DNA of 18,355 nt from a virus (taxonomy: Duplodnaviria; Heunggongvirae; Uroviricota; Caudoviricetes). The translations under genes were made by a program, and so were the position numbers. Every line of letters starts with the position of its first letter. Positions within the stretch are counted from its first letter, which is position 1. Positions 7,921 to 17,248 of the stretch are shown here, in pieces. Under the pieces are notes generated by a model, which worked only from the letters and a program-made list of their open reading frames with translations, did not search any database and was not told the DNA's origin. The DNA is taken from IMG/VR virus record IMGVR_UViG_3300043399_000596, one strand, 5' to 3'.

Positions 7921-8073
7921 TTACAAAATTACACTAGCGAATGCCGCGGCATTCAATGCACTAGCAAAAACATTGAACCACCCTGCACCGGTATTTCCGT
8001 TTTGAAATGCTTCGTTTGCCCACTTCCATGATAGTACGGCAAGCAACAAATTAACCAATGACAGCCAAATCAT
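7921..8073 (-). CDS. 50-aa two-TM membrane protein (not in ORF track)
   Basis: MIWLSLVNLLLAVLSWKWANEAFQNGNTGAGWFNVFASALNAAAFASVIL; TAATG overlap. Confidence 0.75.
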   Translation of the reverse strand: MIWLSLVNLLLAVLSWKWANEAFQNGNTGAGWFNVFASALNAAAFASVIL

Positions 8074-8345
8074 TATGCAGCCTCAAGCATGTTAGCAGGA
8101 ACACGCCAATTAGTCATACCAGAACGGACAATGATGAATTTTCGATTAACCTTTTCAACACTACCGAAAACAGTTTCACCTCGGCGACCAACAAACTTTA
8201 CCTCGGTACCCTTCACAAAAGTGAAGCGAGCCTTTGTTGCAAGTTGCCCACGTGCAAACTTAATTGCTGCCGAGATAGAATTCAACTGTTCGTCAGTGAA
8301 TGCACCACCGATGATTGTAGAATTAATTTCTTGAATCGTTGCCAT
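8073..8345 (-). CDS. hypothetical protein with SH3/KOW-like C-terminal barrel
   Basis: FVKGTEVKFVGRRGETVFGSVEKVNRKFIIV...NWRVPANML; SD AGGAG. Confidence 0.75.
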   Translation of the reverse strand: MATIQEINSTIIGGAFTDEQLNSISAAIKFARGQLATKARFTFVKGTEVKFVGRRGETVFGSVEKVNRKFIIVRSGMTNWRVPANMLEAA

Positions 8346-8368
8346 GTTAGCTCCTGTGTGTCAGTGTC

Positions 8369-8406
8369 AATACAAGTATTGTATGCCCAAAACGAATTAC
8401 TGTCAA
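8369..8406 (-). promoter_or_regulatory. early promoter P3 with palindrome
   Basis: TTGACA GTAATTCGTTTTGGGCA TACAAT ACTTGTATTG. Confidence 0.9.
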
Positions 8407-8636
8407 CCTTTTTTCTCAACCATTTCCTTGAGTTTTTCCTTGTACTCAAGTTGACTAAGGGTTACTCCGTAGAAGACCCAACCAAAGAATACAAAGAACC
8501 CGATAGCCAGAGCATTAATAATGGTTTGAGTACTTACGTTTGCAACAATAAACCCAACCACAGATCCAGCGACAGCGGCGAGAACAAACAGGCCCACGGT
8601 GATAAGCAATGCTTTTTGTTTAAGCGAGAGTTTCAT
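8403..8636 (-). CDS. two-TM membrane protein (77 aa)
   Basis: ORF track 8403..8750 trimmed to ATG 8636 (MKLSLKQKALL) after AAGGAAA. Confidence 0.75.
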   Translation of the reverse strand: MKLSLKQKALLITVGLFVLAAVAGSVVGFIVANVSTQTIINALAIGFFVFFGWVFYGVTLSQLEYKEKLKEMVEKKG

Positions 8637-8766
8637 TTTTGATTTCCTTTGTGAGAATTTCAGCAGTGATGATTTTGCCGCCGTATGCCTGCTGGAACGT
8701 TTCAGCGACAGCCTTGATGAAGAAAGTGTATACTTTACCGTTACTTGCAATCAGTGTGTACTTCAT
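8620..8766 (-). CDS. 48-aa hypothetical protein (not in ORF track)
   Basis: MKYTLIASNGKVYTFFIKAVAETFQQAYGGKIITAEILTKEIKNETLA; first gene after P4, SD AAGGA. Confidence 0.7.
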   Translation of the reverse strand: MKYTLIASNGKVYTFFIKAVAETFQQAYGGKIITAEILTKEIKNETLA

Positions 8767-8783
8767 TCCGATTCCTTATCTTC

Positions 8784-8821
8784 AATACAAGTATTGTATC
8801 AGGAATTGGATTTATTGTCAA
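8784..8821 (-). promoter_or_regulatory. early promoter P4 with palindrome
   Basis: TTGACA ATAAATCCAATTCCTGA TACAAT ACTTGTATTG. Confidence 0.9.
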
Positions 8822-8825
8822 ATTT

Positions 8826-9224
8826 TTACCAAAGAATAGGTTCCTGAGTTCGCTGGTCTTGCAAAATCATAACGATTTCGTCCTTTTCAGGATAAACTAG
8901 ATTCAAAAGTTCTAATTTTTCACGGCGTTCTTCGCTTGACATTTTGAGCCATTTTTGTACTACTTCTGTACTACCCCAAAAGACACCGTGACCCATAGTA
9001 GAACGAATCCAACCGGTCAGTTTCTTCAATGCAGGGACACTGTTACCAGGGTGGCTAGATGCCATCGCACGGAAAAAATCGTTTGCTAATACCGCACTAA
9101 AAAAACTACCCGGCTCATAACCATGAATCAAGTAATTGTAGATTGGGTCAAAATAATCCTTTGGCACTTCCCAATCAGCCGCACCGCGCATGATGTGGTT
9201 CTTGCTGTACTTTGAGATTTCCAT
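8826..9224 (-). CDS. hypothetical phage protein (PGSFFSAVLAND motif)
   Basis: ORF track 8826..9266 trimmed to ATG 9224 (MEISKYSK). Confidence 0.75.
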   Translation of the reverse strand: MEISKYSKNHIMRGAADWEVPKDYFDPIYNYLIHGYEPGSFFSAVLANDFFRAMASSHPGNSVPALKKLTGWIRSTMGHGVFWGSTEVVQKWLKMSSEERREKLELLNLVYPEKDEIVMILQDQRTQEPILW

Positions 9225-9225
9225 A

Positions 9226-9477
9226 TCAACCGTTTTTGAGGATATGATAAGTAAGTTCCGGGCCACCGACGAGACAGCACTGAGTTGTATACTTTAGCAT
9301 ACCCTCTTCTCTCCAATGCCCATGGCCAATCGGAATGACACGCACCTGCTTTGGTGTCATTTTAATGACCTTACCTACATAAAGGGTATTATGATGACTG
9401 AATGCCACATGGTCGTCCATCTTTACCTCACGACCCAAGCAGTCCCTGTGTTCTAATGCTAGTTCCCTAGTACTCAT
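9226..9477 (-). CDS. small SH3/KOW-like beta-barrel protein, translationally coupled to the arfA-like gene
   Basis: DCLGREVKMDDHVAF...YVGKVIKMTPKQVRV; ATG 9477 in TAATG overlap. Confidence 0.65.
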   Translation of the reverse strand: MSTRELALEHRDCLGREVKMDDHVAFSHHNTLYVGKVIKMTPKQVRVIPIGHGHWREEGMLKYTTQCCLVGGPELTYHILKNG

Positions 9478-9641
9478 TAGACCTCCCAAGCATCTTGTTT
9501 ACGGTGCTTGGGGCGGCGATGATACTGGCCCTTCTTAGGCTTTTCAACCTTATGCTTGAAGGGCAAGTCATCATCAAACAGTGCCTTATGGCGGCGTTGT
9601 TTCACGGGTTCGATTCGAAAAGAAATAATATCACGTTTCAT
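9477..9641 (-). CDS. arfA: ArfA-like alternative ribosome-rescue factor, 54 aa (not in ORF track)
   Basis: MKRDIISFRIEPVKQRRHKALFDDDLPFKHKVEKPKKGQYHRRPKHRKQDAWEV; hand alignment to recalled E. coli ArfA [35 protein letters not shown] gives about 16 identities over ~35 positions; ATG 9 nt after the -10 of P5. Confidence 0.72.
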   Translation of the reverse strand: MKRDIISFRIEPVKQRRHKALFDDDLPFKHKVEKPKKGQYHRRPKHRKQDAWEV

Positions 9642-9679
9642 AATACAAGTATTATAGCAGAACGGGTATTTATTGTCAA
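9642..9679 (-). promoter_or_regulatory. early promoter P5 (extended -10) driving near-leaderless arfA-like mRNA
   Basis: TTGACA ATAAATACCCGTTCTGC TATAAT ACTTGTATT ATG. Confidence 0.9.
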
Positions 9680-9686
9680 ATAACGG

Positions 9687-9992
9687 TTACTCTATGTCTT
9701 CGCCGATCACGGTTTGGATATTTTTTATACTCTTTACAGTGAAACTACGCCATTCGTTCTTATCCAAATCAAACACCCTAATTGACGCGGATGATTCTTT
9801 GCGAGGTTTAGCACCTTCTTTCAATTCTACTTTGGGTAATAATTCAGGTTGTAGGGTGCATCGCATAACACGCTCAGTACCGTCTTTTTTAGTAAACGTA
9901 ACCGTTACTGGATTTATGTGTAGAATTCCCCTGAGCCAATTTTCCAAACTAGCCCAATCCTCGTCAGTCCATTCAGTATTAATTTGTATCAT
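9687..9992 (-). CDS. WYL_2-like (Sm/SH3 beta-barrel) protein
   Basis: VTFTKKDGTERVMRCTL ... VFDLDKNEWRSF is the characteristic phage WYL_2 pattern. Confidence 0.75.
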   Translation of the reverse strand: MIQINTEWTDEDWASLENWLRGILHINPVTVTFTKKDGTERVMRCTLQPELLPKVELKEGAKPRKESSASIRVFDLDKNEWRSFTVKSIKNIQTVIGEDIE

Positions 9993-10279
9993 TGTATTAG
10001 CATCCTAATTAAACCCACAGTATCTATCGTAGTAAGCAAGATGTAGTTAGCCAACATGCCAAAAGATTTGCGACTAAAAGCAGCCCAAGCATAGAGGCTA
10101 CAGCCGAAGATCCAAATAGGGTATAAAGTAAGTAAGGGCGGATTCGGGACTGTAGCAGCCATGGCCAGCGAATTCCCAATTGAAATAGCCCAAGCAAGCA
10201 ACTCAACGCAAAAACGAAACCTATTACTACGCCAGTCATTTTTAATCCATTCAAAAATTCCAAATATAACATTATTCAT
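9989..10279 (-). CDS. three-TM membrane protein (possible SemiSWEET/PnuC-like half transporter)
   Basis: Three hydrophobic helices in 96 aa with P-x-W...W-x-x-x-S-R and L-x-N-Y; family call tentative. Confidence 0.55.
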   Translation of the reverse strand: MNNVIFGIFEWIKNDWRSNRFRFCVELLAWAISIGNSLAMAATVPNPPLLTLYPIWIFGCSLYAWAAFSRKSFGMLANYILLTTIDTVGLIRMLIQ

Positions 10280-10772
10280 TGTTATGCCGTTCTATCATTT
10301 CTTCTAGAATAATTTCTACCATCTTATTTAACGTAATGTCACGCTCGTGTGCCATTTCCATTAACTTAAATAGTTCTTCTTTTTCTAGGTTTAGAGGTAC
10401 TTGAACTCTAGCATCAAAATCTTCACCTCGCATGATTGCACCAGCTTTTGATAGCCAATCTTGTTCTGTCTCTAAATCATACCAATTAACGTTGTCCCAT
10501 GCTTGTGCTGGATTAACATTACGCTCCTTAGCTTCATCAATCATACTTTGCTTGTACTCAGGATTCAGCCAACGATAAGGTTTGTGTTTTTGATCTTTAT
10601 CATTAACTTCAGCAGTGTATACTTCTTGTGTCTCGGTATTAAAAACAACCGAAGCATAAGCATACTCACTTTCATAATCTAGCCAACGTGCATTAGGCCA
10701 ACATGACCAACAATAATCACTGCCGCCAGCAATCTTATGATTCAATGCTTCATTAACTTTACTTAGATTCAT
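10272..10772 (-). CDS. hypothetical protein with C-terminal ribbon-helix-helix-like domain
   Basis: VQVPLNLEKEELFKLMEMAHERDITLNKMVEIILEEMI fits an RHH strand-helix-helix pattern; ATG 10772 preferred. Confidence 0.65.
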   Translation of the reverse strand: MNLSKVNEALNHKIAGGSDYCWSCWPNARWLDYESEYAYASVVFNTETQEVYTAEVNDKDQKHKPYRWLNPEYKQSMIDEAKERNVNPAQAWDNVNWYDLETEQDWLSKAGAIMRGEDFDARVQVPLNLEKEELFKLMEMAHERDITLNKMVEIILEEMIERHNNE

Positions 10773-11055
10773 TCTGTTCGCCCTCAAAATACATCTGTGC
10801 CAATTTCATCATTAATGCCGCATGCTCTTTATTTTTAGGGAGTTGCACACTCTTACCTTCACGCAAATCATACAGTTCTCTAATCATGGGTTCGATGTTG
10901 TTATTGAAAATCTGTTCCATTACTTTGTACAGATTCTTAGCATCTTCCTCCGTCATACCACTAGTCCACGGTGGGTCAGTTGGCTTTTTACGAAGCCTAT
11001 AATCGTGCCTGTATGTCATGCACATATCGTGAATTATTTCTTCTTTTGAATACAT
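10759..11055 (-). CDS. hypothetical protein (98 aa)
   Basis: ORF track. Confidence 0.75.
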   Translation of the reverse strand: MYSKEEIIHDMCMTYRHDYRLRKKPTDPPWTSGMTEEDAKNLYKVMEQIFNNNIEPMIRELYDLREGKSVQLPKNKEHAALMMKLAQMYFEGEQNESK

Positions 11056-11135
11056 ATCGTCAACCGAACAACTTTAGTAATTGAAGGTAGAACCCATAAA
11101 AAACTAATACCACGATACTTTCAGGCACATAAAAA

Positions 11136-12188
11136 TTAGAAAGCGCCATAGTAGTTGTACACCTTTTCCTGTACACGGGTCATAATGACACGAGTACCTT
11201 TGTCCTCAAAAACGAACTTACCACTTGCCGCATCAACAGAAATCAATGCGTTAGCATTGAAGGTCTTGTAAATGTAGTCAGCATTATCGTCATCGGGATC
11301 AGTATCAAAACCAATCTCGACACCGTCTGGGCGTAGAGGATTACCTTCAAAGTCATTCTTGTAATCAATATGTTTACCGTTGTGAATGATTTCAATTTGG
11401 TATTTAGAGCCACCATCAAATTCAGGCTTAGCGTTAAGCATACGCAATGCCTCTTGGGGTGTTTCACCATAGCGATTCATTTCTTCAACAAGAGCTTTGA
11501 GCATGTCAAAGTTGAATTGACCAAACAGTGTAGTGATGTTACACAGTTTTTCAATCTGTGTTTTATCGTTTAAATTATCCTCACAGTATTCACGGATAAA
11601 ATTAACATCCAGACCCTTGAACTCCATCATGTAATATACACGACCGGGACGATTACGCATGTGGTAGTCAACACGGTACTTATCGTTACAAGTCAACAAA
11701 AATAGTTTCTTAGTAGGAAACACACCATCCAACAGAGTCAGAATTGCCTCTTGTTGATCACGGTCATATACCTTCTCAAATTCATCAAACAGAATAGCAC
11801 AAGGCTGCTCGATAGTTTGAATGAATGAATTGAACTTGTCACCGTGCCACGGAGCATTGATAACAATAGTAGGAACACCTTGTTTTGCAAGTTCAATGGA
11901 AATGTTTTTAGTAAGTAAAGTCTTACCTGAACCCTTCTCGCCAGTCAGCATAACGCCTGTAGCGTTAGGACGATCCATGAACGTGCGGATAACACGGTCA
12001 GTATTTTTCAGACAATCCCCGTACACTTTACTAGGACGGTTGAAGTCATCGATATGTTCGAGATACAAAGGACCGCCCATAGGTGCTTCTTTTACAGTGT
12101 AGTTACCTGGCGGTAACATATCACGCACATCCATAGATTCTTCGGATGCAACCATGAATGAAGTACCATTTTTAATAAAACGAGTCAT
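11136..12188 (-). CDS. AAA+ ATPase
   Basis: Walker A GEKGSGKT, Walker B ILFDEFEK, sensor TCN, Arg-finger NRPGR. Confidence 0.92.
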   Translation of the reverse strand: MTRFIKNGTSFMVASEESMDVRDMLPPGNYTVKEAPMGGPLYLEHIDDFNRPSKVYGDCLKNTDRVIRTFMDRPNATGVMLTGEKGSGKTLLTKNISIELAKQGVPTIVINAPWHGDKFNSFIQTIEQPCAILFDEFEKVYDRDQQEAILTLLDGVFPTKKLFLLTCNDKYRVDYHMRNRPGRVYYMMEFKGLDVNFIREYCEDNLNDKTQIEKLCNITTLFGQFNFDMLKALVEEMNRYGETPQEALRMLNAKPEFDGGSKYQIEIIHNGKHIDYKNDFEGNPLRPDGVEIGFDTDPDDDNADYIYKTFNANALISVDAASGKFVFEDKGTRVIMTRVQEKVYNYYGAF

Positions 12189-12270: not shown

Positions 12271-13245
12271 TTATGCCCAACGAGACGGTGATTGCGGCCA
12301 AGATCCTGGTTGAGTCTTAGCAGGTGCAACATAACGATAACGTTCAATACCCAGTTGAGCATCGGTATCTCCCTTATCGTAACCTTCCTCATAGTCCTTG
12401 CGGGCTTTGTAGCTGACGGGTTCAGTATAGCTACGACCGATATAACCATCAGTGTAGCCACGATAGAATTCAGTAGAACCAGTCTTAGGTTCAACCTTCA
12501 CACTGTTCGCATTACTTTGAACAGGCTTGCTGAATTCAACTTCGTCCTCAGGGTTGACGCCAACTTCGCCAATAACTTCATAACGACATGCACGACCTTT
12601 AGCATCGTTGTAATCGCTAGGAATGGACACTACGTCACGAGGATTGATTTTCACAATAACAGTGCGATCACCGCCGAAACTCTTGAGGTAGCTTTCACTA
12701 CAGAAGTGAAGACCTGCACTGCAAGTGTTGTTACGATTGTCATCAACTTCGTTGCGTTCCATTTCAACAATGTTGCCAACACTATTATCCATAGTGCCAG
12801 TATGGCAATCCATATAGTTAGCACGAACACGCTTGTAAGCGAGGAAGTGACCGTCAGGAGTAATCGGCAGATTGTTCTTTTCAAGGAAACCATACAGTTC
12901 AGTAACCGCTTGACGAGAAGGGTTACTCATGAGGTTTTCCATGAAGTTGACCAGAGGCTCAATTGGGAACTCATCCTGCAACATAGCAATCATGCGAGTA
13001 GCCAGTGCGTTATGCATAGGCTTACTCCTCCAGTACAGAGTTTCGCCCTGAACACTGACGTTGCCTTTACCGTAGTTAAGGACAACTTGCTTAGGTTCGA
13101 TGATATCCTTGACACGCTCCCAATCACCAGCTTTAATAGCATCAACTACCTTCTGGTAAGTGATGTGGCTCTTAGCGATAGTGTGAGGCTTGTTGCCAAT
13201 CACAACGGTAATGTTATTACCTTGGATAATAAACGGATAACTCAT
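12271..13245 (-). CDS. rIIB: rIIB-like protein
   Basis: FLEKNNLPITPDGHFLAYKRVR...GLHFCS...VKINPRDVVSIPSDY; follows rIIA; ORF track start 13251 is TTG, ATG at 13245. Confidence 0.88.
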   Translation of the reverse strand: MSYPFIIQGNNITVVIGNKPHTIAKSHITYQKVVDAIKAGDWERVKDIIEPKQVVLNYGKGNVSVQGETLYWRSKPMHNALATRMIAMLQDEFPIEPLVNFMENLMSNPSRQAVTELYGFLEKNNLPITPDGHFLAYKRVRANYMDCHTGTMDNSVGNIVEMERNEVDDNRNNTCSAGLHFCSESYLKSFGGDRTVIVKINPRDVVSIPSDYNDAKGRACRYEVIGEVGVNPEDEVEFSKPVQSNANSVKVEPKTGSTEFYRGYTDGYIGRSYTEPVSYKARKDYEEGYDKGDTDAQLGIERYRYVAPAKTQPGSWPQSPSRWA

Positions 13246-13247
13246 TT

Positions 13248-15404
13248 TCAAACACCCTTCTTTTCATCAATCAGGTTAATATATTCTGCAACTTCTGTTG
13301 CCTCTGTACTGTATTTGCTGATACGCTTCAACAGCGGGTAGCGACCATACAATTCTAGCACATCCTTCGAGTACTTATCAATCAATTTACTAGGATCAAC
13401 ATTTGATTGAGTTTGTACTGAATACTTTTTGCACAACCATTCGAGGTTTGTCTTGCGACTAGAATCCTCGACCTTCACATCCTTGAATGCGTTAAACAGA
13501 ACTATGTAGGGACTGTTAGGATTCGTCACATGCTTAATAGCATTGTACTGATAAATCTCTTTCCAGTCAATAGCCTGCTTGACCAAACCCATTACATCAG
13601 ATTGACCCATTTGACTGAGTTTTTCCTTGATATGTTCGTCAAGGTTAATCCAGTTCTTTTGGAGTTTTACCCAATCCATGTCAGTCTTACGCACACCGTA
13701 AATGGTCTTAGTAAAGATACCGCTACGGTTCAGATGGTTATGTAGTTCCTTAACATCGTCAACGATGCCCAAACACTTGTAACCGCTGATGGGCAGATAA
13801 TAGTAAGTTTCAGTAGAATCAAACGAATCAGCCTTACCTGCATCGTGCCACACCATAGGGGTAGTACTGTTCCAACGACCACGGCGTGCTCCCTCAACTA
13901 AGTGCATGATAGTGACATTCTTGCCCATACCTTGAGCACGATCTTTCTCAAGAAGGTCACTTGCCTTGTGAATTTTGTCAGTAGGCGGGCTAGAAATTGC
14001 CTTGAAGAATGCACTAGTTTTCACGGGTTTGTTTTTATCAGCAGCCTCAATCACATACACATTGTTAGAATGTGTATCCATCTTAGTAGCACGCCAGTGA
14101 AATTTAGCTCGTTCCAGTGCACCAACTTTAGTGTCATTAACAACAAAGTGCGTATCACCACTGACACGGATCTGCCACTCTTGCTTCATAACATTTTGAC
14201 CAGCAACATTGGTGTAACCAGTATGTGCTTTGATAGCGGAGCAAGTTTGTACACCGCGGCTCTTGACAAAGCCACGAATACCGATGTTGTACTTGGTCTT
14301 CAGGTCACTAACATCCAGACTAAACTTTTTCAGTGCGTCCCAGCGACTATGTGTAGGATCGAATAGTTCAAACTTAGTAGCTTGGACATACTTGACCACA
14401 GCAGCCTGCCACAGTGCATCATTGTGACGCTTTTCAAGATAGATAGCCCGTTCCCAAAGATTTTCAATCTTGTTGGCTTCGTTAGCAATATGAATAGAAA
14501 GCCGGAGATTCAATGCCTCAAGTTTATTCTTGATTGCTTCAATCGTTTCAGGAATATACGAAAGACCTTCACGACTTGCTTGGAAGTCAAGTTCACCAAT
14601 AGCAAACTCCATGACCAGGCCGCAAGAGAGCAGACCATGCAGACCGCCGAGAGACTTGTCAGCATTAGGTACTTCAATGGGATACTTAATGTTACCCATG
14701 ATAGCGTAGGAATTGTACCCATCGCCACCATGATGAACACCGGGGATGATATCCTTTTCTTTGTACTCAGGATTCTTAAATCCAAAGTCTGCGTTACCAC
14801 TGATTACCGGGCGCAGTTTGAAATATTCATAGACCTGACGAGCCTCTTGACGGAACTTGTCGAAATCGTAGCGTTGTTCCACAGCAAAACGAACCTCGAC
14901 ACCAGCAGGGTCAGTGGTTTGTTCTTCCATCATCAGTGCGATAGACGGAACACCTTGCTCATTAATGAAAGCGGTGTAGATACCTTTGCGATCGTCTTTG
15001 ATTGCGGTTACAGTGAAGTTATCAGTATAACTAAAAGGAGACTTACTACCGAGACCGAGAGCTCCAATGAAGGCGTTAGAATCAGTTTTAGTAGATTCAA
15101 AATATGTAGTGTAAATGTTTGTAACTTGTTCATGGCTAAGTCCTGTACCGTAGTCACGGATAGAAAAGAAAGGCTCAAGTGCATTGGGGAGGTGAACATC
15201 AAACGGTGTGTCCTGTTTACCTGCGGCAACATGACTGTCAACAGCGTTGCAAGAGAGTTCACGGATGATAGCGCGGATCTTGTTAGCATACAGACCGCTA
15301 GACAGAATATTGAAAGCCTTGGCACTGTTGCGAATACGAAATTCGCCAATTTCGCCAACATTGGAAACGATTGCTTCGTTTTGGACTGCGCTGTGTAGTT
15401 TCAT
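13248..15404 (-). CDS. rIIA: rIIA-like protein with N-terminal GHKL ATPase domain
   Basis: IRELSCNAVDSH, DYGTGL, GALGLGSKS GHKL motifs; 718 aa; paired with rIIB. Confidence 0.9.
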   Translation of the reverse strand: MKLHSAVQNEAIVSNVGEIGEFRIRNSAKAFNILSSGLYANKIRAIIRELSCNAVDSHVAAGKQDTPFDVHLPNALEPFFSIRDYGTGLSHEQVTNIYTTYFESTKTDSNAFIGALGLGSKSPFSYTDNFTVTAIKDDRKGIYTAFINEQGVPSIALMMEEQTTDPAGVEVRFAVEQRYDFDKFRQEARQVYEYFKLRPVISGNADFGFKNPEYKEKDIIPGVHHGGDGYNSYAIMGNIKYPIEVPNADKSLGGLHGLLSCGLVMEFAIGELDFQASREGLSYIPETIEAIKNKLEALNLRLSIHIANEANKIENLWERAIYLEKRHNDALWQAAVVKYVQATKFELFDPTHSRWDALKKFSLDVSDLKTKYNIGIRGFVKSRGVQTCSAIKAHTGYTNVAGQNVMKQEWQIRVSGDTHFVVNDTKVGALERAKFHWRATKMDTHSNNVYVIEAADKNKPVKTSAFFKAISSPPTDKIHKASDLLEKDRAQGMGKNVTIMHLVEGARRGRWNSTTPMVWHDAGKADSFDSTETYYYLPISGYKCLGIVDDVKELHNHLNRSGIFTKTIYGVRKTDMDWVKLQKNWINLDEHIKEKLSQMGQSDVMGLVKQAIDWKEIYQYNAIKHVTNPNSPYIVLFNAFKDVKVEDSSRKTNLEWLCKKYSVQTQSNVDPSKLIDKYSKDVLELYGRYPLLKRISKYSTEATEVAEYINLIDEKKGV

Positions 15405-16532: not shown

Positions 16533-16922
16533 TTATACGTAAAACCCTGCCTTACGCAATTCGTTCATGCCTGCCACACGATACTGCGGATCAACTTCAA
16601 TTTTAAAAGGCTTACCACTAGACAACAGGTCACACATGTCTTTGGCTTCTTTCAAACCAAGACCACGTTTGTCAACAGTTCGTATTGTTTTAATCATGCG
16701 AACACGGTCTGCTCCCATTATGTGACCAGTAACATTAATCACATGGTTGTACTCGCCGGTCAACATAGCAAAGAAAATCTGACCTTTAACATCGGGGTCA
16801 AGGACACTTGCAATACCGTCCCAAAGTTTCATGCCTTCGTCAATACCGTAGGCTTCTGTAATAGCCCGCATGAAGTTCATGCCACTTTGTATAATGTCTA
16901 CTTTGTGTTCTGCTGGAATCAT
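16533..16922 (-). CDS. ribosomal protein bL12 (L7/L12) C-terminal-domain protein with novel N-terminus
   Basis: [12 protein letters not shown]...GLGLKEAKD...LRKAG.V matches L12 CTD [24 protein letters not shown]...LEEAGA.V; the N-terminal ~58 aa do not resemble the L12 NTD or hinge. Confidence 0.82.
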   Translation of the reverse strand: [129 protein letters not shown]

Positions 16923-17248
16923 CACAAACCTTTCGGCTTTTGAGGCTTACGAATACCAAGCGTCTTACGCTCATCCGCAGTCAGTTTGTTGTAAGCCTCA
17001 AGTTTGATTTCGTACAGGCGAACCTTCTCTTGGTACTTCTCAAATTTGATGCGAACACCACTGTAGATTTTCTCCCACCACAATGAGACCTCGTCATCAC
17101 GTAAAAGCAAGAATTCAGCACGACCAGCCTTGACAAGTTCAATCATGACCTTTCGGGCAATGCGACCTTCTTTGCCGATATAATATCCCTCGCTATCAAG
17201 ACCTTTGGTGATGAAGTCAAGAATATCCTTGTTTTCTAAGTCACTCAT
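16922..17248 (-). CDS. hypothetical protein with C-terminal KLT-x-x-E-x-x-x-LG motif
   Basis: 108-aa ORF; ...EAYNKLTADERKTLGI. Confidence 0.8.
   Translation of the reverse strand: MSDLENKDILDFITKGLDSEGYYIGKEGRIARKVMIELVKAGRAEFLLLRDDEVSLWWEKIYSGVRIKFEKYQEKVRLYEIKLEAYNKLTADERKTLGIRKPQKPKGL

Follow-up and report, generated by a model that had tools for sequence, protein, structure and literature searches.

The ribosome-rescue factor ArfA (YhdL) of E. coli and other beta- and gamma-proteobacteria (PF03889; PDB 5U4I, 5MDV, 5H5U, 5MGP, 7OJ0) is the reference for the comparisons in this study. Bacterial arfA encodes 72 amino acids and contains a stem-loop at which transcription ends or RNase III cuts. 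The mRNA then lacks a stop codon; the protein made from it is the shortened, active form, trans-translation represses it, and the hydrophobic tail of the full-length product destabilises the protein (PMC8012679; PMC10107115). BrfA of B. subtilis and ArfT of Francisella work in a similar way, each being a small basic peptide that recognises a vacant mRNA channel and brings in a class I release factor (PMC6881298, PMC6299226). Like arfA, brfA is made from non-stop mRNA, and ArfT can use RF1 or RF2. No sequence similarity was detected between either of these factors and the phage peptide that we describe here.

ArfA has also been named in phages. Protein g10 of Citromicrobium phage RXM was called ArfA (PMC8953757), as was gp30 of pelagiphage HTVC027P (PMC12753301), in both cases in passing, and high expression at 3 hpi was reported for the latter, which has an ArfA domain (PMC12753301). 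In GenBank, phages J2-1 and RXM carry ArfA annotations, and the JGI pipeline assigns the name "stalled ribosome alternative rescue factor ArfA" to several proteins of the family, including members of the cluster to which our peptide belongs. Our literature search found no paper that tested a phage ArfA or discussed the design of its stop codon. One candidate paper (PMC10680825) was set aside, as "ArfA" occurs only in an earlier version of it and refers to an unrelated anti-restriction factor. The sequence-only reading from which we started had called the gene hidden, implying novelty, which was an overstatement given the JGI names, the GenBank entries for J2-1 and RXM, and the two papers that mention phage ArfAs. 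Phage ArfA is already known, and the gene described here belongs to a diverged subfamily with a regulatory design unlike that of bacterial arfA. By analogy with the bacterial protein, we propose, with a probability of about 0.57, that the peptide is a release-factor-dependent rescue factor that would be made right after infection, independently of tmRNA, and would free ribosomes on mRNAs truncated in host shut-off.

The gene and its neighbourhood

The window, by which we mean the whole stretch of 18,355 nucleotides that was analysed, comes from the IMG/VR virus record IMGVR_UViG_3300043399_000596. The features around the gene, in the direction of transcription, are as follows.

9687-9992, minus strand: upstream syntenic gene, a 101-aa WYL_2 Sm-like SH3 barrel protein (Pfam WYL_2, 1.6e-14)
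9651-9679, minus strand: predicted sigma-70 promoter of T4-early type, with -35 TTGACA at 9679-9674, a 17-nt spacer with TG at 9659-9658, and -10 TATAAT at 9656-9651 (12/12 match)
9642-9650, minus strand: 9-nt interval from the -10 hexamer to the ATG (ACTTGTATT), with no Shine-Dalgarno sequence (from the sequence)
9477-9641, minus strand: arfA-like coding sequence of 54 aa, ATG to TAA (ORF list, sequence, Pfam ArfA E 5e-4, ArfA-only PDB matches, hhalign 90.6%, dN/dS 0.10-0.30)
9475-9486, minus strand: GGAGG at 9486-9482, within the last arfA codons, followed by TAATG, with TAA at 9479-9477 and ATG at 9477-9475 (from the sequence)
9226-9477, minus strand: downstream gene of 83 aa, predicted to be coupled, ATG at 9477, phrog_2251 (PHROGs match, 1.4e-12)

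The arfA-like open reading frame extends from the ATG at 9641 to the TAA at 9479-9477, and its product is strongly basic, with 17 Lys or Arg residues, 8 Asp or Glu residues and a net charge of +9. A word-index search returned 36 homologues of 47-72 aa (E 2e-21 to 4e-10; identity 55-81%, or 59-87% in local BLASTP alignments), with more than 30 close ones lying on phage contigs; the longer of them are explained by upstream start miscalls or, in one case, a frameshifted tail. Thirty close relatives align nearly without gaps and share 15 invariant columns. A codon-level comparison of seven loci, in which synonymous sites were saturated or nearly so, gave dN/dS of 0.10-0.30, values that exclude a non-coding ORF. 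The arfA-like gene is under strong purifying selection, and the 54-codon ORF, which had been picked out as a basic ORF from its letters alone, is a genuine conserved gene.

The family extends well beyond these relatives. Exhaustive searching of 1.84 billion representatives with a profile recovered distant relatives in 121 clusters (50% identity) at E<=1e-3, nearly all of them 43-56 aa long, and the consensus of this wider family is K.R.H..LFD.DLPF..KVE..K..Y.RK.KH. In one of the loci (L006, IMGVR_UViG_3300043418_000114), on a contig of 364 kb, the homologue is 73% identical and its promoter is placed in the same way, so the subfamily also occurs in jumbo-sized phage genomes. Searches of named collections returned little: tblastn of the peptide against phage records gave only weak matches (E 2-9), PHROGs gave only phrog_19198 at E 0.25, NCBIfam gave no match, and tblastn with the distant member P0059 gave no informative match. 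In the protein atlas the peptide matched only unnamed viral clusters with scores below 0.9, one of which has 10% DUF7230 members.

Every gene in the window is on the minus strand, including rIIA (13248-15404), rIIB (12271-13251), and genes for an AAA ATPase, a metallophosphoesterase and a dCMP deaminase; no tRNA genes were found in the window. Among cultured phages, rIIA finds its best matches in T4-like phages of Proteus and Aeromonas, where identity is only 35-40%. A megablast search of positions 8800-10800 against 50,697 phage records returned nothing, which leaves no close cultured relative among them. On the strength of the low rIIA identity and the lack of megablast-level DNA sharing, we assign the window to the early region, beside rIIA/rIIB, of an uncultured and distant T4-like phage. 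JGI metagenome contigs, the longest of 95.8 kb, carry the identical peptide. A profile search of genome contigs found no relative of the close family in 185,579 species genomes, and therefore offers no prophage or host clue.

The gene order is partly conserved. The arfA-like gene is followed by the orthologue of the 9226-9477 gene in L001 and L003-L006, and the orthologues of that downstream gene in L001 and L002 carry DUF7205. A WYL_2 gene also precedes the arfA-like gene in L001, L003-7, L009, L017 and L018. The WYL_2 gene, the arfA-like gene and the DUF7205/phrog_2251 gene thus form a syntenic trio on several related contigs, and a functional link between them is possible. The overlap of stop and start in TAATG, together with the GGAGG sequence ahead of it, predicts translational coupling to the next gene, and the same overlap was called in L001.

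Two other observations concern translation in this region. A 130-aa early protein encoded at 16533-16925 on the minus strand matches the C-terminal domain of ribosomal protein L7/L12 over residues 70-100, with 26.3 bits against a Pfam cut-off of 25.9 bits, and would be a second translation-related early gene in the region. Separately, the 41 minus-strand genes of at least 45 aa in the window end in TAA (25) or TGA (16) and never in TAG, so that all of their stop codons are readable by RF2; the chance of finding no TAG among 41 genes is roughly 1-2% if the typical TAG share is about 10%.

Relationship to ArfA and DUF7230

The ArfA-like identity proposed by the sequence-only reading is borne out by several kinds of comparison. 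The peptide matches the Pfam ArfA model (gathering cut-off 25.5 bits) at E 5e-4, with residues 19-46 on profile positions 15-43 of 44, but its score of 19.8 bits is below the cut-off, so the match that this reading had proposed to look for in Pfam is found at a score short of the curated threshold. All 30 of the close relatives match the same model at E<=1, the best at 4.2e-5. When the single sequence was searched with phmmer against 177,635 distinct PDB sequences, there were six matches, all of them ArfA chains (E 0.014, HMMER bias 0.3), and the family profiles A1 (E 1.3e-4) and A3 (E 8.6e-4) likewise matched only ArfA chains in this set. Profile-profile alignment with hhalign against 16 enterobacterial ArfAs gave probabilities of 90.6% for the close family and 92.3% for the 97 diverse relatives, with P ~1e-6. 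A bridging member of the family, P0119, has KKGKGSY and scores 27.5 bits, above the Pfam ArfA cut-off.

A different explanation would be that the peptide is a small basic nucleic-acid-binding peptide that resembles ArfA through its K/R-rich composition, or an unexpressed ORF. The Pfam score under the curated cut-off would fit such a reading, as would a short, highly basic peptide that belongs to no PHROGs or NCBIfam family. However, the matched positions include non-basic ones (A-L, D, L, F, V-E, Y, W-E) with a composition bias of only 0.3, three different queries match nothing except ArfA in the PDB set, the hhalign P value is small, bridging members pass Pfam ArfA, and the dN/dS range is that of a selected protein. 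We consider this explanation largely refuted and give it almost no weight.

The family also touches DUF7230 (PF23876, cut-off 27 bits), which has no functional annotation and for which our literature search found no paper that mentions it. The peptide itself scores 9.4 bits on this model (E 1.6), below the cut-off, and 20 of the 30 close relatives and 27 of the 97 distant ones have matches to it, weak to significant, over the C-terminal half. The protein of Pseudoalteromonas phage J2-1 scores above the cut-offs of both models, with 41.3 bits on ArfA and 28.6 bits on DUF7230, and the two Pfam families therefore overlap. These comparisons suggest that DUF7230 may be an unrecognised branch of the ArfA superfamily, and place the peptide, with well-supported homology, in what we regard as a diverged phage subfamily of an ArfA/DUF7230 superfamily.

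Among the matches of the tblastn search (2.3 Gb of "phage" records), the one listed first, with the widest query coverage, was to a Salmonella contig, where it falls on an unannotated true arfA between zntR and mscL. Two records in the phage collection, AGRM01000003.1 and AFYI01000003.1, are Salmonella chromosome contigs of 515-582 kb in which the host arfA (zntR-mscL) is unannotated.

Cultured phages carry ArfA genes that are often missed or misnamed in annotation. In Pseudomonas phage pf16 (L015:595-738, plus strand; KU873925.1 131775-131918, minus strand) we found an unannotated 47-aa ORF with an AGGAG Shine-Dalgarno sequence and a Pfam ArfA score of 72.5 bits; the record annotates only the hypothetical pf16_199, on the opposite strand, overlapping the start of the ArfA ORF. 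Salmonella phage Arash gp99c (L014:598-741, plus strand) is annotated as "ribosomal protein L2", and its N-terminus is probably over-long; the 47-aa core starting from MYKHN scores 69.6 bits. The J2-1 protein (ATN93434.1; L016:583-738, plus strand) has 51 aa. Pseudomonas phage vB_PpuM-Roomu-2 has an unannotated intergenic ORF of 45 aa (L012:1938-2075, plus strand; PP496417.1 27844-27981) with 28.5 bits on DUF7230 and a weak ArfA match; its stop overlaps the next ATG (TAATG), like that of the window gene, and the ORF is also found in four sister phages and in XD2. The window gene resembles the cultured-phage ArfAs in being phage-borne and short (47-51 aa in pf16, Arash and J2-1) and in ending with an ordinary stop. 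It differs from those of pf16 and Arash, which retain the canonical KKGKGSY loop and an ArfA-type N-terminus, in belonging to a much more diverged subfamily; those genes also have Shine-Dalgarno leaders or coupled starts, whereas the window gene has a promoter that abuts its ATG.

The peptide was then compared with E. coli ArfA residue by residue, using the residue roles given by the 70S-ArfA-RF2 structures (PMC5378476). HMMER aligns V13-E53 of the peptide to I11-E52 of E. coli ArfA, and all of the pairings that had been made by hand, including the one with A18, are present in this alignment: A20=A18, L21=L19, F28=F25, VEK=V29-K31, KK=K33-K34, Y40=Y39, R42=R41, KH=K44-H45 and WE=W51-E52. The two proteins thus share the pattern A-L..D..L.F+.+VEK.KKG.Y.R+.KH....WE, along with the RF2 patch, a basic tunnel tail and the active truncated length. 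In E. coli, the patch L19/L24/F25 binds Trp319, Val198 and Phe217 of RF2 (PMC5378476); across the 30 relatives, the aligned L21/L26/F28 of the peptide show either no variation or conservation of at least 90%. The beta-strand segment at 25-29, FRQRV in E. coli, is FKHKV in the phage peptide. Residues 31-48 of E. coli ArfA form the positively charged mRNA-tunnel segment, about half of which is K/R (PMC5378476), and the aligned K34-Q49 of the peptide has 8 K/R in 16 positions. Truncation at N47 leaves the E. coli protein active, and truncation after M40 does not (PMC5378476). Among the 97 diverse relatives the most conserved positions are L21, F22, P27, F28, R42 and K45, which lie within the RF2 patch and the basic tail.

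The differences are also specific. The KGKGS loop is two residues shorter (KKG-QY), a gap that appears in both the HMMER and hhalign alignments and agrees with the shortening of KKGKGS to KKG-Q reported by the sequence-only reading. The proline is shifted (DLPF in the peptide, DPLF in E. coli ArfA), and in the N-terminal minidomain an invariant K..R.H replaces K-D-N-A-I-E. At the equivalent of A18 the window peptide has Ala (A20), close relatives have Pro, Val or Met, and Val is frequent in the distant ones. The A18T form of the E. coli protein no longer supports release but still binds RF2 (PMC5378476), so with this position varying, activation cannot work in exactly the same way in all members of the family.

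These differences bear on a reading in which the peptide is an ArfA-derived ribosome binder that does not activate a release factor, and acts instead as a blocker or decoy in the empty mRNA channel, competing with tmRNA-SmpB or host ArfA. It could in this way stop the tagging and degradation of products, or modulate translation during takeover. The motifs of the tail are the best-conserved link to ArfA, while the N-terminal minidomain, which drives the active form of RF2 in E. coli, is the most diverged part; the shortened loop and a position that tolerates residues other than Ala where the RF2-binding A18T protein is inactive (PMC5378476) point the same way. A pure channel blocker, however, would have no need of the RF2-contact patch, whose three residues L21, L26 and F28 are invariant or nearly so. 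The window's own protein retains Ala at the A18 position, and stalled ribosomes that stay in place would be translation capacity lost to the phage. On balance a blocker seems to us unlikely, and release-factor-dependent rescue remains the reading that we prefer.

Structure prediction of the peptide with E. coli RF2, a kind of modelling that the sequence-only reading had suggested, gave a co-fold score of 0.49 against 0.00 for the best control, with runs sharing at least 61% of contacts and a partner pLDDT of at least 44. This mark was reached by 58/80 solved complexes and 2/110 mismatched pairs, and at scores of 0.60 or lower by only 7/80 solved complexes and both of the mismatches. Given that ArfA-RF2 complexes are already solved, the pass may stem from those known structures, showing likeness and not binding, and the prediction lends weak support to a pairing of the peptide with RF2.

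Stop codon and promoter

The phage gene has a true TAA, overlapping the next ATG, at the length of processed ArfA. A single codon (V54) lies between WE and the TAA, and the end of the ORF corresponds to position 53 (A53) of E. coli ArfA. The relatives all end in ordinary stops, at 43-58 aa. A 3' hairpin at 9484-9513 (8 bp, z -2.0), the sole one in the vicinity, was considered as an RNase III-like element and rejected, as it is absent in six relatives. Unlike bacterial arfA, the phage gene therefore has a real stop, no conserved RNase III or terminator hairpin, and no hydrophobic C-terminal extension. The sequence-only reading had described a tail-less product of active length, pre-trimmed and independent of tmRNA, and with a real TAA and no conserved hairpin this is correct as a description of the gene. 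Expression of the gene should accordingly not be gated by tmRNA, as far as its sequence can tell. To judge from the sequences at hand, the pre-trimmed design is general for phage ArfAs.

The strong promoter that had been noted ahead of the gene was recovered as a full match to the sigma-70 consensus at 9679-9651, and is the best match in the interval 8000-11200. Two further consensus promoters in that interval lie about 26-32 nt ahead of the next start codon. Taking the usual distance from a -10 hexamer to the transcription start, the 9-nt interval predicts a leader of about 0-4 nt, and the arfA-like transcript is probably near-leaderless, its start being placed by spacing. The same arrangement, with 7-9 nt from the -10 hexamer to the ATG and no Shine-Dalgarno sequence, is found in L001, L003-5, L006, L007, L008, L017 and L018, whose proteins are as little as 40% identical; a WYL_2 gene precedes the arfA-like gene in most of them. 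We rejected the near-leaderless design as a trait of the whole superfamily, as L009, L010 and L019-L022 have leaders with sequences like a Shine-Dalgarno. By this comparison of loci, the promoter abutting the ATG is a trait of the WYL_2-syntenic T4-like lineage and not of the superfamily. Compared with bacterial ArfA, the phage gene thus differs both in its protein (a shorter KGKGS loop, a shifted proline and another N-terminal motif) and in its setting, an early operon with a predicted near-leaderless promoter.

Proposed function

ArfA is disordered off the ribosome. If the phage peptide acts as its bacterial counterpart does, the basic C-terminal half (K34-K48) would thread into the mRNA entry channel that is left empty when a ribosome stalls at the 3' end of a truncated message, and the middle segment (F28-V32) would add a beta-strand to domain 2 of RF2. 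The hydrophobic residues L21/L26/F28 would engage the switch loop of RF2, leading it to hydrolyse the peptidyl-tRNA without a stop codon. With a consensus early promoter and a TAA at the active length, the factor would be produced immediately upon infection, regardless of tmRNA status, and would recycle ribosomes trapped on host mRNAs, and on phage early mRNAs, that are cut during takeover. Ribosome binding, RF2 recruitment, the start of transcription and the benefit to the phage are all inferences, and a compatible RF2 in the host is assumed.

The same activity could have been selected mainly as counter-defence, freeing ribosomes stalled by defence systems that cleave mRNA or produce non-stop complexes in other ways, such as toxins of the RelE/HigB or RnlA type or CRISPR-associated RNases. 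The gene is an early-region neighbour of rIIA/rIIB, both known to antagonise exclusion, it is surrounded by other small early genes of anti-host type, and its promoter predicts very early and strong expression. Yet no defence-related partner or target was identified in the searches made here, the syntenic neighbours are small barrel proteins that look like housekeeping genes, and a family as widespread as this one (121 clusters) is better explained by a general need than by a specific counter-defence. We therefore regard defence as the main source of selection as improbable, and the general recycling of ribosomes during host shut-off as the better account.

A broader version would make the peptide part of a phage programme that re-routes termination and rescue via RF2, as an active step of takeover or counter-defence and not as housekeeping. 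It would fit a near-leaderless, tmRNA-independent ArfA, expected within minutes of infection, that occurs together with an early protein like the C-terminal domain of bL12 and with 41/41 genes that end in TAA or TGA. Under such a programme the phage would actively remove ribosomes from host mRNAs that have been cleaved, or withstand defence toxins that cut mRNA. We hold this version to be doubtful, and keep to the simpler proposal of a phage rescue factor acting through RF2.

The annotation record of the family, unannotated in pf16 and Roomu-2 and called a ribosomal protein in Arash, shows how often such genes are overlooked. Bacterial ArfA is a back-up that is made only when tmRNA is overwhelmed. 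If the proposed function is true, many large phages would carry a ribosome-rescue factor of their own that escapes regulation by the host, and the destruction of host mRNA during infection would be linked to the recycling of ribosomes.
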